Origin: an uncultured delta proteobacterium
GTDB lineage: Bacteria; Desulfobacterota; Binatia; DP-6
Length of the DNA stretch: 64,000 nt
Assembly: GCA_963815115.1 (NCBI GenBank)
Contig: CAWFFN010000012.1
Location: 285,174-349,173, forward strand
Reading direction: 5' to 3'
Shown here one piece after another: positions 12,300 through 19,342 of the stretch; the stretch's first letter is position 1, and each line of letters opens with the position of its first letter. The notes beneath the pieces are model-generated. The model ran no database searches, was not told the DNA's origin, and was given only the letters and a program-made list of their open reading frames with translations. Both the position numbers and the translations under genes were made by a program.

Positions 12300-12564
12300 C
12301 GCGTTCCTCCTCCTCTCTGCGACGTTGGTAGCAGAGCCGACGTTCGCCGGCCACCACGGGTGGGATCGTGATCGTACGAACGGCCACCGCCGTCGTGGGC
12401 GCGCGCAACGCCTTGCAGCCCGGTCAGGCGCACGCGCAATCCGGTTGTAGATTCACCGCGGGATTCACGGCGGTTTCCGTTGACACGCCTTGCGGTACGT
12501 TTCCTGCTCTTGCCAGGGCGACTCGTTCCAGGATCGATCCGTTCGGCAGGGGGAGGGAGAACAC

Positions 12565-13806
12565 ATGCGGGCTCCTAGGGGTCGGGTCTGCCTCGTGCTC
12601 GCGGCAGCGCTGCTGTGCGTCGCCGCCGCAGCGCGGCGATCGGATGCAGGTCCGCCGCTCAGGCGTGACCTGAGCGCGTACCTGTTCTTCGGCCTGCGCA
12701 GCGCCGGGCTCAAGAACATGACCGTGACCGGCGCCTGCAACTCCGGCGTCGACTGCGCGCAGCCGAATCCGAACAGCGACTGCGGAGTGATCACCCACGA
12801 AGACCCCGACTATGCCGACGGGAGCCAGATCGCCGGCGATCGCGCGCGCTTCACGACGGGCGGCGGGATCATCTTCCAGCTCTTCAGCAATTCGCCGACG
12901 GGGCTGGAGAACGTCTTCCTCAACTCGCCGCCGGTCGAGCCGCTGACCCCGCTGCCGATCCTCGGTGACGCGGACGCCGATGGCGTCCCGAGCTGCAGCA
13001 TCGCCAGCGGCTCGTGTGCCATCGACACGGGCGATCTGGCGGCCGCGTGCGGATTCGCCGTCCCGTTCCCGGCCTGCGATCCCTCCCGCCCGGTCACCGT
13101 CACCGCGCTCGGCGATTGCCCGTTCGACGATCAGTCGCCGGGAAACCAGCGCTGTGACCTGCCGCCCGGCGTGTACGGCGCTCTCGAGGTCAAGGACAAG
13201 AGCCTGCTCACGTTCACCGGCGGCTCCTACGTCTTCTGCGACTTCCAGTTCGGCAAGGCGACCGAGACGCTGGCCGATGCCAGCACGATCATCGCCGTGA
13301 ACGGCGCCGTGGCGATCAGCAACGACTCCAACTTCGGTCCCGCGGCCGGACAGAACTGCGGGCAGATCAAGGTGAACGTCGCCGGCCCCGGCGACTTCAG
13401 CTTCGGCCGCCAGGCCGCCATCAACGCCTACTTCTGCGCGCCCGAGCGCACCATGCTGCTCGGCCACGACAACAACCTCACCGGCCACTTCTTCGGGAAC
13501 GTGATCAGCGCCGACTCGAACAACCGCGGCTTCTGCTGCCTGGCCGAGCCCAAAGCGCTGTGCTCGGGGTTCGACAGCTTCGTGCCGGTGACGGCCGGCG
13601 TGGGCGCGACGGTCACGCTGTTCTCGACCTGCAGCCTTGCGCCGGTGACCGAGGTGCGCATCTGCGGGATCGCCGCACCGATCGTGTCGCAGGCCGACGA
13701 CAAGCTCGAGGCGACCATCCCGGCGGGCGCGTCCGGTGCTTGCCAGGTCCAGGTGATCAGCCCGGCGGGAATCTTCACCGGCGCCGCCACCCTGACGGTG
13801 AGCTGA
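12565..13806 (+). CDS. secreted cysteine-rich protein of unknown function with C-terminal IPT/TIG-like domain (paralogue 1)
   Basis: The ATG at 12565 follows GGGAGGGA. A signal peptide is present. Conserved blocks are shared with the next gene, and the C-terminus VTEVRICGIAAPIVSQADDKLEATIPAGASGACQVQVISPAG is IPT-like. Confidence 0.8.
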   Translation: MRAPRGRVCLVLAAALLCVAAAARRSDAGPPLRRDLSAYLFFGLRSAGLKNMTVTGACNSGVDCAQPNPNSDCGVITHEDPDYADGSQIAGDRARFTTGGGIIFQLFSNSPTGLENVFLNSPPVEPLTPLPILGDADADGVPSCSIASGSCAIDTGDLAAACGFAVPFPACDPSRPVTVTALGDCPFDDQSPGNQRCDLPPGVYGALEVKDKSLLTFTGGSYVFCDFQFGKATETLADASTIIAVNGAVAISNDSNFGPAAGQNCGQIKVNVAGPGDFSFGRQAAINAYFCAPERTMLLGHDNNLTGHFFGNVISADSNNRGFCCLAEPKALCSGFDSFVPVTAGVGATVTLFSTCSLAPVTEVRICGIAAPIVSQADDKLEATIPAGASGACQVQVISPAGIFTGAATLTVS

Positions 13807-13834
13807 CGTGGCAACCCGGAAGGAGAGTCGCGTG

Positions 13835-15040
13835 ATGCCCTCCCACCAGTCCGTCGTGAGGTGGTCCGTTGCGCTGGCCGTCACCGCGGCGCTCCTCGCC
13901 GTCGTGCCGAGCGCGTCGGCGCAGCCGCTCCGGCGCGATCTGTCGTCGTACCTGCTCCTCACCATGAAGCGGGCGTCGCTCAAGAACCTGCGCATCGGCA
14001 GCCCGTGCAACGTCGGCGTGAACTGCGGCTCGCCGACGCCCAAGTCGAAGTGCGGCGTGCTCGCGCTCGGCAACGTCACCGGCGTCGACGGCGGTCAGGT
14101 GGTGGGCGACCAGGTCTTCCTGCGCAGGCCGGGCAGCAAGCTCTGGGAGCTCTTCCGCAACAACGACTCGCCGCTCGACAACGTCCAGCTGGTCGCGCCC
14201 GCGCCCAACCCGCAGTCGTTCGTGCCGCCGGTCGTCCCGGGGACGTGCGACGACACGTGCACGCCGAACTACGCCGAGATGGAGAGGGCCTGCGGCTTCC
14301 CCGATCCCTTCCCGGCGTGCGATCCGACCAAGGACGTGAAGGTCGTGCGCGGCGGCGACTGCGCGCCGTTCGACACCGTGCCCGGCAACCAGCAGTGCGA
14401 CCTGCCGGTGGGCGCCTACGGACGGCTCGCGATGGAGGACGGCTCCCGGCTGAACCTCGAGCCCGGCGTCTACGTGACGTGTCTCTTCAAGGCCGGCCAG
14501 GACACCACCACGACCGCACACGGCACCACCATCTTGATCCCCGGCGACGCGCCGGCGAAGAGCGCACTGCGGGTGAACAACGGCTCCAACCTGGGAGCGG
14601 ACTGCGGCGACCTGCGCTTCCTGATCGGCGGCGTCACCAAGATCGCGTTCGGGCGCGGGGGGCTGGTCGCGGCGGAGGTGTGCGCGCCGCAGTCGAAGAT
14701 CTCGCTCGGGCACAACAACATCCTGATCGGACAGTTCGTGGCCGACTCCGTCAGCGCCGACCTGAACAACTTCGGCCGCTGCTGCGGAGGGACGTGCGCC
14801 TGCTACAACGAGCTCACGCCCTCGAGCGCGCATCCGGGCACCGTCGTGACGGGCACGAGCAACTGCGACCTCACCGCCCTCACCGGGGTCTCCGTGTGCG
14901 GCATCCCCGCCAACGTCGTCTCGGTGACGCCGACCGAGGTGCGATTCGAGGTCCCGCCGGGTGCGAGCGGCGCGTGCCCGGTCGAGTTCGTCAGCCCGGC
15001 GGGCACCTTCGTCGGCAACATCACCCTGACGGTGGGCTGA
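13835..15040 (+). CDS. secreted cysteine-rich protein of unknown function with C-terminal IPT/TIG-like domain (paralogue 2)
   Basis: The ATG at 13835 follows GGAAGGAGA. The signal peptide is ALAVTAALLAVVPSASA. It shares PLRRDLSxYL, CGFxxPFPACDP, GNQxCDLPxGxYG and LGHxNxLxGxF...SADxNNxGxCC with 12565-13806. Confidence 0.8.
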   Translation: MPSHQSVVRWSVALAVTAALLAVVPSASAQPLRRDLSSYLLLTMKRASLKNLRIGSPCNVGVNCGSPTPKSKCGVLALGNVTGVDGGQVVGDQVFLRRPGSKLWELFRNNDSPLDNVQLVAPAPNPQSFVPPVVPGTCDDTCTPNYAEMERACGFPDPFPACDPTKDVKVVRGGDCAPFDTVPGNQQCDLPVGAYGRLAMEDGSRLNLEPGVYVTCLFKAGQDTTTTAHGTTILIPGDAPAKSALRVNNGSNLGADCGDLRFLIGGVTKIAFGRGGLVAAEVCAPQSKISLGHNNILIGQFVADSVSADLNNFGRCCGGTCACYNELTPSSAHPGTVVTGTSNCDLTALTGVSVCGIPANVVSVTPTEVRFEVPPGASGACPVEFVSPAGTFVGNITLTVG

Positions 15041-15173: not shown

Positions 15174-15182
15174 TTGACCAAC

Positions 15183-15485
15183 ATGGCGAGGACCCCGACG
15201 GCGAAGGCGCTCAGCGTCGCAGAGGCGAAGCGGCGGTTCTCCGACGTGCTCGGCGCCGTGAAGCACAGGGGGGAGCGCGTGGTCGTGGAACGCCGCGGCC
15301 GGCCGATCGCGGCCATCGTGCCGCTCGACGACCTCGCGCGGCTCGAAGGCGATGTTCAGCGCGGCTTCCTCGCCCTGGTGGGAGCCTTCGGCGATGTCCC
15401 CGCGTTCCCTCGGGTTCTCGATGACATCGTCCGGACCCGGCGGCTGCAGCGCAGCCGCCCGGCGCCGAAGCTGGGTAGACGGTGA
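15183..15485 (+). CDS. vapB: type II antitoxin, Phd/YefM (prevent-host-death) family
   Basis: MARTPTAKALSVAEAKRRFSDVLGAVKHRGERVVVERRGRPIAAIVPLDDLARLE matches the family pattern. The stop overlaps the PIN gene start (GTGA). The TTG at 15174 is an alternative start. Confidence 0.85.
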   Translation: MARTPTAKALSVAEAKRRFSDVLGAVKHRGERVVVERRGRPIAAIVPLDDLARLEGDVQRGFLALVGAFGDVPAFPRVLDDIVRTRRLQRSRPAPKLGRR

Positions 15486-15883
15486 TCGTGCTCGACACGG
15501 ACGCGGTGAGCGAGCTCATGCGTCCACGTCCTTCGGCGCGCCTGGTCAGCCGTCTCGAGCGATGGTCTCCGGCCGAGCAGGCCACGACGGCGATCACCCT
15601 CGGTGAGATCGCCTATGGCGCCCGCCGGGCCGAACGGCCCTCGCTGTACGACCGCGCGATCGGCCTGCTGGGCGGGGTGCGGATCCTGGACTTCGATCGA
15701 GCGGCCGCCGAGCGCTACGGCGAGATCCGGACTGCGCTCGAACGGGCAGGTGTGCGGCTGGCCGATCCGGACCTCCGGATCGCGGCCATCGCCGTGGCCT
15801 CCGATGGCCTGCTCGTCACCGGGAATCTCCGGCACTTTGCGCGAGTTCCGGGCCTGCGGGCCGAGGACTGGGTTCACGGCTGA
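15482..15883 (+). CDS. vapC: type II toxin, PIN-domain ribonuclease VapC
   Basis: MIVLDTDAVSEL...ITLGEI...DLRIAAIAVASDGLLVTGNLRHF shows the conserved PIN acidic residues in the usual order. Confidence 0.9.
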   Translation: MIVLDTDAVSELMRPRPSARLVSRLERWSPAEQATTAITLGEIAYGARRAERPSLYDRAIGLLGGVRILDFDRAAAERYGEIRTALERAGVRLADPDLRIAAIAVASDGLLVTGNLRHFARVPGLRAEDWVHG

Positions 15884-15938: not shown

Positions 15939-16074
15939 ACGAGGTCAGGGTATGACCGGGAGCTGCCAAGGGGATCAGGCTTGACTGTCGCGATCGGTCC
16001 GTCTATCGCGTCGCTTCGGGTCGTGAGGGCGCTCAGCCCTATGCCGGTCATCTCGGTCGAGAGGAGCGGAACCC

Positions 16075-16944
16075 ATGGCGCAGACGCCTGATGCCCTGGT
16101 GCTCGACGTGCTGGCTTCCTACGAAGCCGAGCTTGGCGAGCGTGAGGTCACGTATGGAAAGGTCGTCGTCCTGTCGCTGGGCGGGCGCATCCGCGGGGAA
16201 GAGCCGGTTCCCCAAGGTTCGGTCGTCGCGTACGTGGCACGCCGTGGAAATCCCGTGCTCCGCACGCTCGTCGCCGCCGCGCGAAAGGGCGACGTGCGGA
16301 CGATCGCCAAGATTCATACGGACGCGGGCCGGCGCATCGCCCAGCGTGTGACGGCGCCCTCTCCGAGGCCCAGGCCGCTGGCAGCGGTTCCGGTGCTCGC
16401 CGAGCTGCGCTACCGCAGCAAGACGATCGCGCGCGCCGTGATGCCGGATGGTCCCTCGGGCGTCGCCATCCGGATCTTTCCCTACAATGGCGGCAAGCTC
16501 TACGACGCGGATTTCCGTCTGGCGCAGTTCAAGCGCGGCGCGAGCGCCGGCGACCTCGAAGCGGTGCTGCTCAAGCGCGGCCCCCAGCTTTCCGCCCTCG
16601 AGCGCAGGGTGTTGGCGCAGGTGAGCGGCGACGCCACGGAAAACAACATCTCCGCCGAGCTGGCGTTCGTCGGCGCCATCGTCAACGCGATCGTCAACGC
16701 CGGCAAGGCCGTCTACGCCGCGACCAAGGCAGCCGTGAACTGGGCCGTCGATCACAAGGTCGGGTTGCTCTTCGCCGCGCAGGTCGTCACCTGGGCCGTG
16801 AGCGTCTTTCCGAAATTCTCGACGATTGCGCGGCAACCCGGAATCTCGGGCGCCGCGGGGCGAGTCCGCCGTGGAGCGTCGGCGCACGAGCTGCTCAAGG
16901 CTCGTCGGGAAGCGCTGCTGGGCGAGCTGAACCGGCGCGCCTGA
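16075..16944 (+). CDS. uncharacterised protein, first gene of the Sdp-like cassette, with a C-terminal Ala/Val/Gly/Lys-rich hydrophobic segment
   Basis: The ATG follows AGGAG. The stop is 6 nt before the next start. The opposite-strand 514-aa ORF has junk composition. No signal peptide or known motif was recognised. Confidence 0.65.
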   Translation: MAQTPDALVLDVLASYEAELGEREVTYGKVVVLSLGGRIRGEEPVPQGSVVAYVARRGNPVLRTLVAAARKGDVRTIAKIHTDAGRRIAQRVTAPSPRPRPLAAVPVLAELRYRSKTIARAVMPDGPSGVAIRIFPYNGGKLYDADFRLAQFKRGASAGDLEAVLLKRGPQLSALERRVLAQVSGDATENNISAELAFVGAIVNAIVNAGKAVYAATKAAVNWAVDHKVGLLFAAQVVTWAVSVFPKFSTIARQPGISGAAGRVRRGASAHELLKARREALLGELNRRA

Positions 16945-16950
16945 CCGGGG

Positions 16951-17607
16951 GTGGCGACCCACGCTGTCGCGCTCGTGTTCGCCCTCTGGTTCGGCGCGTC
17001 CGTGCTGAACCAGCTCGAGGCGACCGGGTATGCCCCGGCCAAGCGCCTGGCTCTCCTCGTCAAGTCGCTCGATCTCTTCTCGCTCATTCCGACCTGGAAC
17101 TTCTTCGCTCCGAACCCCGGGACGAACGACTACCACCTGCTCTATCGGGAGCGGCTGGATGCCGGCGGGTACGGCGTCTGGAGAGAGGTCCCCTTCCCGA
17201 AGCAGTCGGGTCTCCTCAAGGCCGTGTGGAACCCCCGCAAGCGCCGGGCCAAGGTCCTGTCGGACGTCGTGATCAGCCTCGGAAGCGCCGTCGCCGAGGC
17301 CCGCCTGACGGCTCTCGGGCGGCTCGCGCCTCGGGCCGATGCAGACACCGGAGCCGGGAGCCGAGGGCAGGACGCCGGCGATCGGCGGCGAGACTACGAA
17401 GCTCGCCTCTCCCGGCTGATCTCCGAAGAGCTCCGGCCGCTCAAGCTCTCGATTCCCTACCTGATCGTGCTGAACTATCTGAACGGGCTGCCGCACTCGC
17501 CGTTCAGCGACTCGATCCAGTTTCTCTTCGCGCAGACGGCCGGTTTCGATCCCCATGCCGAGCCCGAGATCCTCTACGTCTCCGAGCCGCACGAGCTCGC
17601 ATCCTAG
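16951..17607 (+). CDS. SdpA-like protein (single N-terminal TM helix, W-x-FF-x-x-x-P motif)
   Basis: The TM helix is VALVFALWFGASVL. About 25 residues later comes LIPTWNFFAPNPG, the same spacing as PQGWGFFSKDPR in B. subtilis SdpA as I recall it. The stop is 3 nt before the SdpB-like gene. Confidence 0.55.
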   Translation: MATHAVALVFALWFGASVLNQLEATGYAPAKRLALLVKSLDLFSLIPTWNFFAPNPGTNDYHLLYRERLDAGGYGVWREVPFPKQSGLLKAVWNPRKRRAKVLSDVVISLGSAVAEARLTALGRLAPRADADTGAGSRGQDAGDRRRDYEARLSRLISEELRPLKLSIPYLIVLNYLNGLPHSPFSDSIQFLFAQTAGFDPHAEPEILYVSEPHELAS

Positions 17608-17610
17608 ATC

Positions 17611-18429
17611 ATGAATGCGGTCACGGCGCTGCGCTTCTGTAACGGCCTCGTGCTGGTGGGCGTCGTGCTGACGGCGCTCGAGACGCTGGTCTCACGGCGC
17701 GACTATGCGCGCGGGCAGATGCTCGACTGGGAGGTGCTGAAGCATTCCTGGGGGTTTGCTCTGCGGCCTCCGCTCGGCCCCTTGCTCGACCGGGTTCTCG
17801 GCTATCCGGGCTTCATCCTCCTGGTCGGGGTTCAGCTGCTCGCGAGCGCGGCAGCGCTCTGGATGCTGCTGCACGGCGGCTGGCCGAGGGGACTCAACTG
17901 GGTGGTGTTCGGGCTCGTGCTGCTGTTCAATTTTCGCAGCGGGTACGGTCTGGACGGCGCCGATCAGATGACGGGCAACGTGCTCGGCGCGCTCTGTCTG
18001 GCGGGACTCCTGCCGCAAGATCCGGTCGCACTCGGGGCCGCCCTCTGGTTTCTCGGGCTGCAGGCGACGCTCTCCTATCTCACCGCCGGGCTCTACAAGA
18101 TCGCAGGCAAGGACTGGCGCAGCGGCACGGGCCTGCTCGGTGTGATCAGCACTCGGAGCTATGGGAGCCCTCGACTCTCGGCGTACCTCGAGAGACATCC
18201 GAGCCAGGCGCTGGCGGCGGCCTGGAGCGTCATCGCCTTCGAATCGCTTTTCCCGCTCGCCATCCTTGCCGGCCCGAAGTGCGCGCTCGTCTTGCTGGGA
18301 ATCGGCGTCGCGTTTCACCTCGGCAATGCCGCCGTCATGGGTCTGAACAACTTCGTGTGGGCCTTCACGGCCACCTACCCGGCGGTGCACTACTGCGCCG
18401 AACGCATGCAGACGCTGCTTCGCGGCTAG
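17611..18429 (+). CDS. SdpB-like / HTTM-domain polytopic membrane protein
   Basis: There are six or more hydrophobic segments. GYGLDGADQMTGNVLG and LYKIAGKDWRSGTGL match the DGGEQ and EWIDGTAVYY regions of B. subtilis SdpB / HTTM proteins. Confidence 0.7.
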   Translation: MNAVTALRFCNGLVLVGVVLTALETLVSRRDYARGQMLDWEVLKHSWGFALRPPLGPLLDRVLGYPGFILLVGVQLLASAAALWMLLHGGWPRGLNWVVFGLVLLFNFRSGYGLDGADQMTGNVLGALCLAGLLPQDPVALGAALWFLGLQATLSYLTAGLYKIAGKDWRSGTGLLGVISTRSYGSPRLSAYLERHPSQALAAAWSVIAFESLFPLAILAGPKCALVLLGIGVAFHLGNAAVMGLNNFVWAFTATYPAVHYCAERMQTLLRG

Positions 18430-18475: not shown

Positions 18476-19342
18476 CTAGCCGGCGCGCGCCAGCTCCCAC
18501 ACCAGCGCTTCCGGCAGCCCCAGGAGCGCGTGCCGGAAGATGTCCGGCGCGAGGGGCATCAGACCGCCCGAAGCCATCGCGACCGCCTTCTCATCCAGGC
18601 GTGGCTCGAGGCACCGCCGGACGGTGAGGCCGGCGGCCGTGAAGGCCGCGAAGTAGTCCTCGTGCCGGTGCGCGTAGCTGTGCACGTGGCCCGCCCGGCC
18701 GTCCGCGTCGATGAAGAACGCGCTGCCGCCGATCATGAGCTGCAGCGGGTGGAAGTCCGAGATCACGAGCCGCCCGCCGGGGCGCACCACCCGCGCCAGC
18801 TCGGCGACCGGGGGGCCGAGGTCCTCGCAATGGGTGAGCGCGAGCGAGCACACCGCGAGATCCACGCTCGCCGTCTCGAGCGGCAGATCGGTGAGGTTGC
18901 CGATGCGCAGATCGGCATCCGGCAGCGCCTCGCGGGCGACGTCGAGCATCGCCGCGCTGGCGTCGACGCCGACGACGCGGTGGCCGCGGGCGTGCAGGTA
19001 GCGCGCGTGGCGGCCGGTGCCGCAGGCCGCGTCGAGCGCGCTTCCGGGCGGCAGCGCGTCGATGAGCGACCGCACGGCGGGCTGCTCGACGCGGATCAGG
19101 GGATTGGCGGCGGTGTCGTAGGCTCGCGCCCAGCGCGCGTAGCCCGACTGCACCTCCTCGCCCGGCACGTCGAGCCGCATCGCGAGCGGCGGCGCGTCGG
19201 GATGTGCCAGGAAGCCTGCCAGCTCGTCGAAGCGCGCGGCCGCGACGTCCGGCGCCCCGAGCCAGTTCCGCAGGATGGACAGTCCGGCCATCCCGACGAG
19301 GAAGTTTCCGACGCTCGCCTGCCCCATGTCGCTGTGTCGCAC
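18476..19342 (-). CDS. class I SAM-dependent methyltransferase
   Basis: Motif I is LDAACGTGRHARYL. It is followed by VVGVDAS and DLAVCSLALTH. The gene is divergent from the radical SAM gene. Confidence 0.9.
   Translation of the reverse strand: MRHSDMGQASVGNFLVGMAGLSILRNWLGAPDVAAARFDELAGFLAHPDAPPLAMRLDVPGEEVQSGYARWARAYDTAANPLIRVEQPAVRSLIDALPPGSALDAACGTGRHARYLHARGHRVVGVDASAAMLDVAREALPDADLRIGNLTDLPLETASVDLAVCSLALTHCEDLGPPVAELARVVRPGGRLVISDFHPLQLMIGGSAFFIDADGRAGHVHSYAHRHEDYFAAFTAAGLTVRRCLEPRLDEKAVAMASGGLMPLAPDIFRHALLGLPEALVWELARAG

Follow-up and report, generated by a model that had tools for sequence, protein, structure and literature searches.

What does a compact operon make when two of its genes encode membrane proteins of recognisable kinship and the third belongs to no catalogued family? 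The question is raised by a three-gene cassette of an uncultured delta proteobacterium (GenBank assembly GCA_963815115.1, contig CAWFFN010000012.1), which lies on the plus strand at 16075–18429 of a 64-kb stretch of DNA (64,000 nucleotides, contig positions 285,174 to 349,173). We call this stretch the window, and all coordinates are positions in it. The cassette had earlier been described, from the letters of the DNA, as an SdpA/SdpB-like system for peptide-toxin maturation with an unrecognisable first gene (hereafter the original prediction). Our analysis points elsewhere: with a probability slightly better than even, roughly 55%, the operon joins a precursor (gene 1) to a membrane maturase of the LinL/LinG type (genes 2 and 3). 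Judged by sequence, the nearest characterised relatives of genes 2 and 3 are the linaridin proteins LinL and LinG.

The three open reading frames (ORFs) read from the sequence occupy 16075–16944, 16951–17607 and 17611–18429, with gaps of 6 and 3 nucleotides, which confirms the layout originally proposed. Gene 1 encodes 289 residues and starts with an ATG situated 8 nucleotides downstream of a Shine-Dalgarno sequence, AGGAG (16062–16066), read directly from the DNA; gene 2 (218 residues) starts with GTG and gene 3 (272 residues) with ATG. Since no clear Shine-Dalgarno sequence was found for genes 2 and 3, and their starts fall 6 and 3 nucleotides past the preceding stop codons, translational coupling of each to the gene before it is suggested. 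The three genes are genuine, with conserved homologues for every one of them and synteny of the trio in many phyla.

Gene 3 encodes a polytopic protein with about eight hydrophobic segments. A hidden Markov model (HMM) of its family recovers LinG of Streptomyces atratus with an E value of 2.3e-82 and SdpB with 1.2e-15, and gene 3 itself is 35.8% identical to S. atratus LinG (tblastn). By these matches it is a homologue of LinG, which corresponds to the transmembrane (TM) part of LinH, CypH or LegG. The S. atratus locus (L088 in our numbering of loci) is the best plasmid match to gene 3 and is ordered precursor, LanB, LanC, HTTM protein, alpha/beta hydrolase and a protein of 177 residues; we identify its LinG and LinL through the match of this layout to the hybrid cluster described by Georgiou et al., in which LanB/LanC occur together with LinE/LinG/LinL (bioRxiv 10.1101/2020.07.09.196543). 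Gene 2 encodes a single-pass membrane protein, as had been predicted, with one N-terminal TM helix at residues 2–25 (16954–17025) in an AlphaFold2 (AF2) model of mean predicted local distance difference test score (pLDDT) 86.2. The HMM of its family recovers the 177-residue S. atratus LinL at 7.5e-32 and gives no score for SdpA, and the LinL proteins of 28 loci that contain LinE match the family at 1e-42 to 1e-54; on these profile matches gene 2 is a homologue of LinL (CypL). In linaridin producers, proteins of this kind are indispensable, as deletion of cypH, cypL, legE or legG abolishes linaridin production (bioRxiv 10.1101/2020.07.09.196543). LinHL has been listed among peptide epimerase systems, with reference to Xiao 2022 and Xue 2023 (PMC10406935), and the structure of cypemycin was revised once D-amino acids had been found in salinipeptins (PMC10849128).

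How the pair is embedded in other genomes separates the cassette from the linaridin clusters. A genome scan with the gene 2 alignment gave 80 loci, and individual homologue look-ups together with the window brought the number analysed to 87, using our own ORF calling and HMMs. Homologues of genes 2 and 3 are adjacent in 87/87 of them. In 28 actinomycete loci (Streptomyces, Amycolatopsis, Prauserella, Actinopolyspora, Nonomuraea and others) LinG, or a LinG-hydrolase fusion, is followed by LinL, and a LinE-like alpha/beta hydrolase is present, fused or adjacent, in 28/28; several have upstream precursors with a PxxxTP motif. These are canonical linaridin-type clusters. A further 58 loci, namely the window and 57 others, have gene 2 followed by gene 3, and we call them LinE-less: jackhmmer started from LinE found the hydrolase in one of the 58 and had no match in the 64-kb window. 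Described linaridin clusters are actinobacterial in 559 of 561 cases (bioRxiv 10.1101/2020.07.09.196543), whereas the LinE-less hosts are mostly non-actinobacterial, Bacteroidota among them, with loci from Dokdonia, Kordia, Pedobacter, Mucilaginibacter, Dyadobacter, Hymenobacter, Saprospiraceae and several Acidobacteriota, as well as from Verrucomicrobiota, Planctomycetota, Chloroflexota, Solirubrobacterales and others. All-against-all clustering of the LinE-less loci yielded four recurrent families, which are those of gene 2, gene 3, gene 1 and the DCC/DUF393 thiol-disulfide oxidoreductases. DCC genes occur in 24 of the 58 LinE-less and 16 of the 28 LinE-containing loci; the 64-kb window has no DCC or VKOR gene.

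The family of gene 1, here the G1 family, is the third constant element. As originally stated, gene 1 lacks a recognisable family: it has no Pfam, NCBIfam or PADLOC match, its relatives likewise fall into no Pfam or NCBIfam family, and only eight relatives that share sequence words with it were retrieved from 5.8 billion clusters. An HMM of its close homologues nevertheless detected relatives directly 5' of gene 2 in 16 further loci of at least six phyla, and iteration added Dokdonia forms of 116–200 residues in two to three tandem copies. When jackhmmer was seeded with a 97-residue ORF, outwardly unrelated, located upstream in a Saprospiraceae locus, it converged on 47 ORFs that include the Dokdonia forms and one long form, and this merging of long and short forms indicates that they constitute one family. 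One to five G1 copies, nearly all directly upstream and on the same strand, accompany the gene pair in 53 of the 58 LinE-less loci; inspection of the remaining five showed either upstream sequence truncated at a contig end or an upstream ORF in which the motifs can be seen. ORFs with both G1 motifs are enriched immediately 5' of gene 2 (24/129 against 7/3537, p 3e-30). The co-occurrence also held in the reciprocal direction: a metagenome scan seeded with a narrow G1 alignment found five loci, one of them with two tandem G1 genes, and a gene 2 homologue lay downstream in 4/4 and a gene 3 homologue in 2/2 of the contigs long enough to judge.

Gene 1 is a long-form member of this family, and its anatomy can be read in four parts. 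The N-terminal domain (residues 1–165, 16075–16569) carries the motifs ELRYRSKTI and FPYNGGKL and the invariant residues G48, Y113 and G139; it occurs in long forms only, and its absence from the short forms of 90–165 residues implies that it is dispensable for the module. It is followed by the N motif LKRGPQLSALERRVLAQVSGD (residues 166–186, 16570–16632), a conserved amphipathic helix in which L172 and E176 are invariant among 19 long forms. Short forms begin with the equivalent L[ST]xxELxxLDxxI, and a motif HMM gave a match at the corresponding position. Next comes the variable Ala/Val-rich core (residues 187–262, 16633–16860). Across the family the cores vary in length and sequence and contain 13.7% Ala, 11.6% Val and 0.2% Cys; conservation peaks at a Thr, after which Pro is frequent; this position forms an AT(P) column in about 19 of 27 sequences and is represented in gene 1 by Thr217 (16723–16725). 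The C-terminal motif GRVRRGASAHELLKARREALLGE (residues 263–285, 16861–16929) is again a helix, with L273 and R277 invariant in the long forms, and the short forms end in the same tail, hSh[DE]xLIxLR, a helix of the ELLxxR type. In gene 1 the conserved helices are LSALERRVLAQV on the N side and ASAHELLKARREALL on the C side of the core. None of 72 G1-like ORFs has an N-terminal hydrophobic stretch, in agreement with the earlier statement that gene 1 lacks a signal peptide. The AF2 model of gene 1, built on a shallow alignment, has a pLDDT of 40.8 and is unusable; a profile search of the PDB with the family returned poly-Q artefacts only, huntingtin being one of them.

Conserved ends together with variable middles and amplification in tandem are expected of ribosomal precursors, and by analogy the G1 genes resemble the precursor arrays of peptides that ribosomes make and that are modified after translation (RiPPs). 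From these sequence features we regard G1 as the probable ribosomal precursor, or substrate, of the gene 2 and gene 3 products. The picture of a cassette without a precursor, which the original prediction had conveyed, has to be given up, as gene 1 itself has precursor anatomy. A link to the linaridin clusters points the same way. Some precursor-like ORFs of LinE-containing loci, of the form ...LATPAYAGY...GSVDELLGMRVASIN, share the ATP motif and an SVDELLxxR-type C-terminal tail with the G1 family, and their tail (GSVDELLGMR) matches the G1 C-terminal motif. The profile comparison between the two groups is weak and positionally exact, with an E value of 0.009 compared with 0.22 for a reversed decoy. 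This suggests a follower recognition element common to LinE-containing and LinE-less systems.

Several variants of the family and its precursor-like counterparts deserve mention in their own right. In six loci of Prauserella and Amycolatopsis (L030, L033, L039, L043, L052 and L053), precursor-like ORFs of 86 residues located 5' of LinG combine PxxxTP with C-terminal GSVDELLGMRVASIN. A Mucilaginibacter metagenome-assembled genome (MAG) contains five G1-like genes (L040, 3868–8195), four of them downstream of the HTTM gene and some encoding 220–233 residues, and in a Thermoanaerobaculia MAG a 134-residue ORF with the G1 C-terminal motif sits between the homologues of genes 2 and 3 (L009, 6531–6935), a long G1 lying upstream as well. 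In the long G1 of locus L018, the only one so compared, the first 27 residues weakly match the Nif11 domain (E 0.013), which recalls RiPP leaders of the Nif11 type; the G1 of L016 is about 80% identical to it over these residues, and gene 1 of the window lacks the match. Double-glycine leaders have the consensus LSxxELxxIxGG. The G1 N motif, LSxxELxxLD, resembles it but is not followed by GG, and a C39 peptidase is missing, so the likeness is recorded as no more than that. A defence-system reading of the cassette was discarded for want of a PADLOC model match.

Would the precursor and its maturase nonetheless form a genuine Sdp-type system, in which genes 2 and 3, as orthologues of SdpA and SdpB, handle the processing and export of a cannibalism or antimicrobial toxin precursor and gene 1 stands in for SdpC? 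SdpA and SdpB are both reportedly required for the SDP cannibalism toxin. We compared the cassette with Sdp loci of Bacillus, Niallia, Streptomyces, Tsukamurella, Rhodococcus and Curtobacterium plasmids. For gene 3 the kinship is clear. In hhalign it aligned with SdpB at a probability of 95.1% (E 3.3e-8) when a single sequence was used and 97.7% (E 2.4e-12) with a seven-sequence profile. The alignment pairs LDGADQM with LDGGEQV and K..DWRSGTG with AKLFNAEWVDGTAVYY, which are the two blocks singled out in the original prediction, whose description of a polytopic HTTM-like protein is supported as well. Three conserved sites of gene 3 have SdpB counterparts. The DGADQM motif (residues 115–120, 17953–17970), in which G116 is invariant and D115, D118, Q119 and M120 are nearly so, aligns with DGGEQV; the segment KIAGKDW (18097–18117), with invariant K163 and W169, aligns with AKLFNAEW; and the invariant F235-H236 (18313–18318) aligns with an FH pair. 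We consider gene 3, on these alignments, very probably an HTTM-superfamily protein and a true but distant relative of SdpB. The family models place the limit: gene 3 scores 37.6 bits (E 1.8e-9) against the NCBIfam SdpB model TIGR04033, whose cut-off is 178.4, and 27.1 bits (E 3.9e-6) against Pfam HTTM (PF05090), just short of the cut-off of 27.7. Both matches cover the C-terminal half only, and five gene 3 homologues, 32–88% identical, have a precomputed PF05090 match.

For gene 2 the Sdp connection is fainter. It has no Pfam or NCBIfam match, and the SdpA model TIGR04034 matched neither gene 2 nor any of 36 relatives even at E ≤ 10. Its signature IPTWNFFAPNPGTNDYHLLYR (residues 46–66, 17086–17148), which includes the motif IPTWNFFAPNPG at residues 46–57, has P47, F51, F52, A53, P54, N55, P56, G57 and R66 invariant in 37 sequences and aligns weakly with SdpA PQGWGFFSKxPR and with positions 22–76 of DUF5819. 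The best local alignment to SdpA falls exactly where the original prediction had seen a shared motif, the aligned stretch being TWNFFAPNPGT with GWGFYSKSPRD only, but the match to a single SdpA is not significant (hhalign, E 0.87). Against a seven-sequence SdpA profile the P value is 7e-4 (26% probability), over 67 columns that span the TM helix and the P.W.FF..P..Y motif. A remote homology of gene 2 and SdpA is therefore possible, the alignment being suggestive and marginal. The gene 2 family itself is large (1,753 clusters at 50% identity in a search of representative libraries), and the best 150 matches of that search were close relatives only, with no bridge to SdpA or DUF5819.

Other likenesses to Sdp loci lie in architecture. 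Both systems pair an HTTM protein with a small single-pass partner that bears a P.W.FF motif shortly past its TM helix, and actinobacterial Sdp loci are ordered toxin-SdpA-SdpB, which corresponds to the order of the cassette. DCC oxidoreductases are frequent accessories both in Sdp loci and in the LinE-less sisters of the cassette; DCC genes stand beside HTTM-partner pairs in the Sdp loci L087, L089 and L095 (Bacillus and Niallia plasmids). SdpC and G1 also share a gross layout of pro-region, hydrophobic Ala/Val/Gly-rich core and short polar tail. However, G1 shows no SdpC homology: hhalign against the SdpC profile gave non-significant E values of 0.007–0.05, and TIGR04032 was not matched. All eight SdpC-family or SdpC-position proteins that were fetched begin, on inspection, like a signal peptide, which no G1 does. 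The flanking genes scanned (Phd/YefM, PIN, methyltransferase, B12-radical SAM, PhyH and LLM, described below) include neither SdpI nor SdpR, the whole window not having been searched with SdpI/SdpR models; to this extent the earlier report that SdpC, SdpI and SdpR homologues are missing stands. As genes 2 and 3 are also much closer to LinL and LinG than to SdpA and SdpB, an Sdp-type system in the strict sense appears quite unlikely. The cassette is related to SdpA/SdpB at the superfamily level and is not a member of the Sdp systems, so that of the SdpA/SdpB-like cassette proposed earlier the homology of gene 3 remains, while neither gene reaches the Sdp family models. The broader suggestion of a toxin or membrane-peptide system with a novel partner fares better, as the cassette very probably serves the maturation of a peptide or protein and has a new partner, although its nearest kin are LinG and LinL and not Sdp.

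For the precursor and LinL/LinG-type maturase that we favour, we propose the following hypothetical mechanism, in which (i) gene 2 (LinL-like, single-pass) and gene 3 (LinG-like, HTTM fold) would form a two-subunit integral-membrane enzyme, of a type that is genetically essential for linaridins and is there credited, together with LinE, with the L-to-D epimerisation of peptides; (ii) G1 would be the substrate and, lacking a signal peptide, would encounter the enzyme on the membrane's cytoplasmic side; (iii) G1 would dock via its two amphipathic helices, which flank the Ala/Val-rich segment with the conserved Thr; (iv) this segment would be modified, alpha-carbon chemistry (epimerisation and/or dehydration) being the most likely by analogy; and (v) the modified segment would probably become a hydrophobic membrane-active peptide or a membrane-inserted protein. 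The predicted topology fits this scheme. The conserved loops of gene 3 carry 13.4 Lys+Arg compared with 1.3 on the opposite side, a charge bias that fits a cytoplasmic orientation. The Lys/Arg residues seen by eye, without a count, after the gene 2 TM helix suggest a cytoplasmic gene 2 domain. A cytoplasmic gene 3 site would also agree with the leaderless G1 and, by reasoning, with the cytoplasmic co-enzymes of linaridin pathways.

A different chemistry has been put forward for related proteins. A 2026 preprint proposes DUF5819-HTTM pairs as split GGCX-like enzymes, predicts that complexes of DUF5819 with HTTM-DCC proteins resemble whole GGCX, and predicts MloH to be a fused bacterial carboxylase (10.64898/2026.08.19.745780). 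Transferred to the cassette, gene 3 would generate a strong base from reduced quinone and O2, gene 2 would take the place of the lumenal clamp of GGCX, the vitamin K-dependent carboxylase, and an acidic residue of G1, for example Glu176, which is invariant in the long forms, would be carboxylated. The HTTM fold family is common to both, and K163, W169 and F235-H236 of gene 3 fall in register with K218, W223 and F286-H287 of GGCX (whose sequence was checked against the PDB), though at low confidence (hhalign E 0.005, probability 7%). The small single-pass partner is a further parallel, and DCC1-like genes occur in many sister loci. Sub-threshold DUF5819 (PF19136) matches occur in 30/37 and 9/10 gene 2 relatives, always in the same region (P.W.FFAPNPG..DY.LLYR), on which we regard gene 2, through its family, as a remote DUF5819 relative: the ten individually listed relatives score 13–21 bits against a gathering score of 27.1, and gene 2 of the window has no match itself. 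Where GGCX binds glutamate, through N159/H160 and Y395 (PMC12647623), the comparison breaks down. These residues and the clamp domain were not recognised in genes 3 and 2. N159/H160 have no confident counterpart in gene 3, the site there being the DG[AGS][DE]Q motif common with SdpB (DGADQM in the window), and extension of the alignment to the N-terminal half has zero confidence. A profile search of the PDB with the gene 3 family gave nothing at E ≤ 1; Foldseek of the gene 2 model (pLDDT 86) against the PDB gave no match, GGCX included (best E 1.2); and hhalign of the gene 2 family against GGCX gave nothing. In short forms D, Q, T, K or N stands in place of the N-motif Glu, and, as stated above, DCC and VKOR genes are missing from the window. 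We therefore judge a split carboxylase very unlikely.

Returning to the reading of G1 as the substrate of a LinL/LinG-type maturase, a number of points weigh against it. The connection between G1 and genes 2 and 3 is drawn from sequence and neighbourhood. Clustering of the LinE-less loci brought out no gene for a protease, a transporter or immunity that is conserved with the module. LinE, the hydrolase-type epimerase component of the literature, is absent, and the chemistry may differ. Gene 1 of the window lacks the PxxxTP of linaridins and is not rich in Thr, and with 289 residues, including an N-terminal domain of about 165, it far exceeds typical RiPP precursors. The cytoplasmic topology, for which the charge bias is the basis, is the opposite of what homology to GGCX would predict. 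Finally, the cores of some lineages have poly-Q interruptions or a TM-like helix: long G1 proteins of Saprospiraceae (L022), Chloroflexota (L032) and Verrucomicrobiota (L036) carry 60–150 residues of poly-Q/QQG between core and C-terminal motif, and forms of Solirubrobacterales (L056, L065, L067 and L071) have Q/E-rich low-complexity linkers. The Verrucomicrobiota form and those of Solirubrobacterales contain a clear TM-like segment (NWGLAAAGLVFVVVVVAGVLL), a feature that fits poorly with a simple released peptide. Long G1 proteins that combine a genuine TM-like helix with poly-Q linkers look more like membrane proteins.

The last of these features, together with the folded-looking 165-residue domain and the lack of a conserved protease or exporter, would be accounted for if G1 were not a substrate but a structural, regulatory or immunity partner, such as a membrane-tethered adaptor, and the LinL/LinG-like pair acted on a lipid, a quinone or another small molecule; the case of MloH shows that a non-ribosomal substrate is within the reach of HTTM enzymes. 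Yet divergent copies arrayed in tandem, two to five at a time, whose ends are conserved and whose middles vary, are what precursors, and not subunits, typically show, the N-terminal domain can be dispensed with across the family, and the C-terminal motif recurs in the PxxxTP-type precursors of LinE-containing loci. We consider a non-substrate role of G1 unlikely.

Even if G1 is matured by the LinL/LinG-like pair, the cassette differs from a linaridin cluster in the established sense. The likeness consists in the homology of gene 3 to LinG and of gene 2 to LinL, their constant adjacency and the precursor-like gene beside them. In contrast to linaridin clusters, the window has no LinE alpha/beta hydrolase, separate or fused as in LinH, and the cassette is ordered precursor-LinL-LinG, whereas linaridin loci have LinG or LinH first and LinL second. 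Its precursor, at 289 residues, has the extra N-terminal domain and the conserved C-terminal follower; it lacks PxxxTP on inspection and has YAATK where its relatives have ATP. LinD and LinT are missing from the cassette. The adjoining class-I methyltransferase, on the opposite strand, matches the LinM-type domain PF13649, and similar genes occur in just three other loci. With two defining linaridin features present (LinG and LinL) and two missing (LinE and a PxxxTP precursor), the cassette is not classed as a linaridin cluster.

The LinE-less LinL/LinG (HTTM) module with its precursor-like family is widespread and is undescribed in the literature and libraries that we searched. LinG, LinL and LinE are genetically essential for linaridins, and a precursor with LinL and LinG would represent a natural minimal system; present in 58 of 87 loci and in many phyla, this minimal version would allow the contribution of the HTTM/LinL pair to be tested alone. 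A bolder extension, which we find doubtful, is that G1, LinL and LinG without LinE define a widespread class of ribosomally made peptides or proteins that has so far gone unrecognised in Bacteroidota, Acidobacteriota, Verrucomicrobiota, Chloroflexota and relatives, and in which the HTTM protein and LinL alone would perform alpha-carbon chemistry (epimerisation or dehydration), possibly driven by quinol oxidation as in the vitamin K-dependent carboxylase, and the substrate would be recognised via a C-terminal follower helix and not a classical leader. If so, the core linaridin activity would have to be reassigned from the alpha/beta hydrolase to the HTTM/LinL pair, and linaridin, Sdp and GGCX-type enzymes would be mechanistically unified. 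Among Gram-negative bacteria of soil and sea, the uncatalogued precursor family could be a source of membrane-active peptides that have not yet been tapped. Such loci escape linaridin mining tools that depend on LinE; the C-terminal ELLxxR follower and the FFAPNPG partner offer a handle for genome mining.

One further feature of gene 2 is an Ala/Arg/Asp-rich insertion of about 45 residues (approximately 113–158, 17287–17424), which most family members lack; it is common only to close relatives and Bryobacterales-type homologues and forms part of long helices in the AF2 model.

The flanks of the cassette contain genes of several other kinds. The GC content is about 68–70% across the region with no compositional break, and a promoter and terminator scan of this 70% GC sequence was uninformative. 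Pfam and NCBIfam scans recognise, upstream, a Phd/YefM-family antitoxin gene (15174–15485) that overlaps by 4 nucleotides a gene for a PIN-domain VapC-like toxin (15482–15883), a toxin-antitoxin pair in the place where vapBC had been reported; the toxin matches tRNA(fMet)-endonuclease VapC models, below their cut-offs. Downstream, a gene for a class-I S-adenosylmethionine (SAM) methyltransferase (18476–19342; PF08241/PF13649, PF13649 E 1.2e-20) lies on the minus strand, convergent with the cassette, and the genes that follow, up to 23152, encode a B12-binding radical SAM enzyme, a PhyH-family dioxygenase and a luciferase-like monooxygenase (LLM). These four resemble tailoring enzymes and are not conserved beside related cassettes. 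They were rejected as cassette members, as methyltransferase-like genes accompany so few other loci and the clustering shows no recurrence of any of them; in locus L001 a PF08241 methyltransferase gene lies upstream on the same strand. Further upstream in the window, at 12490–15040, two tandem paralogues of 438 and 410 residues, neither with a Pfam match, have signal-peptide-like N-termini and share the motifs LRRDLS.YL, CDLP.G.YG and SPAG.F.G..TLTV.

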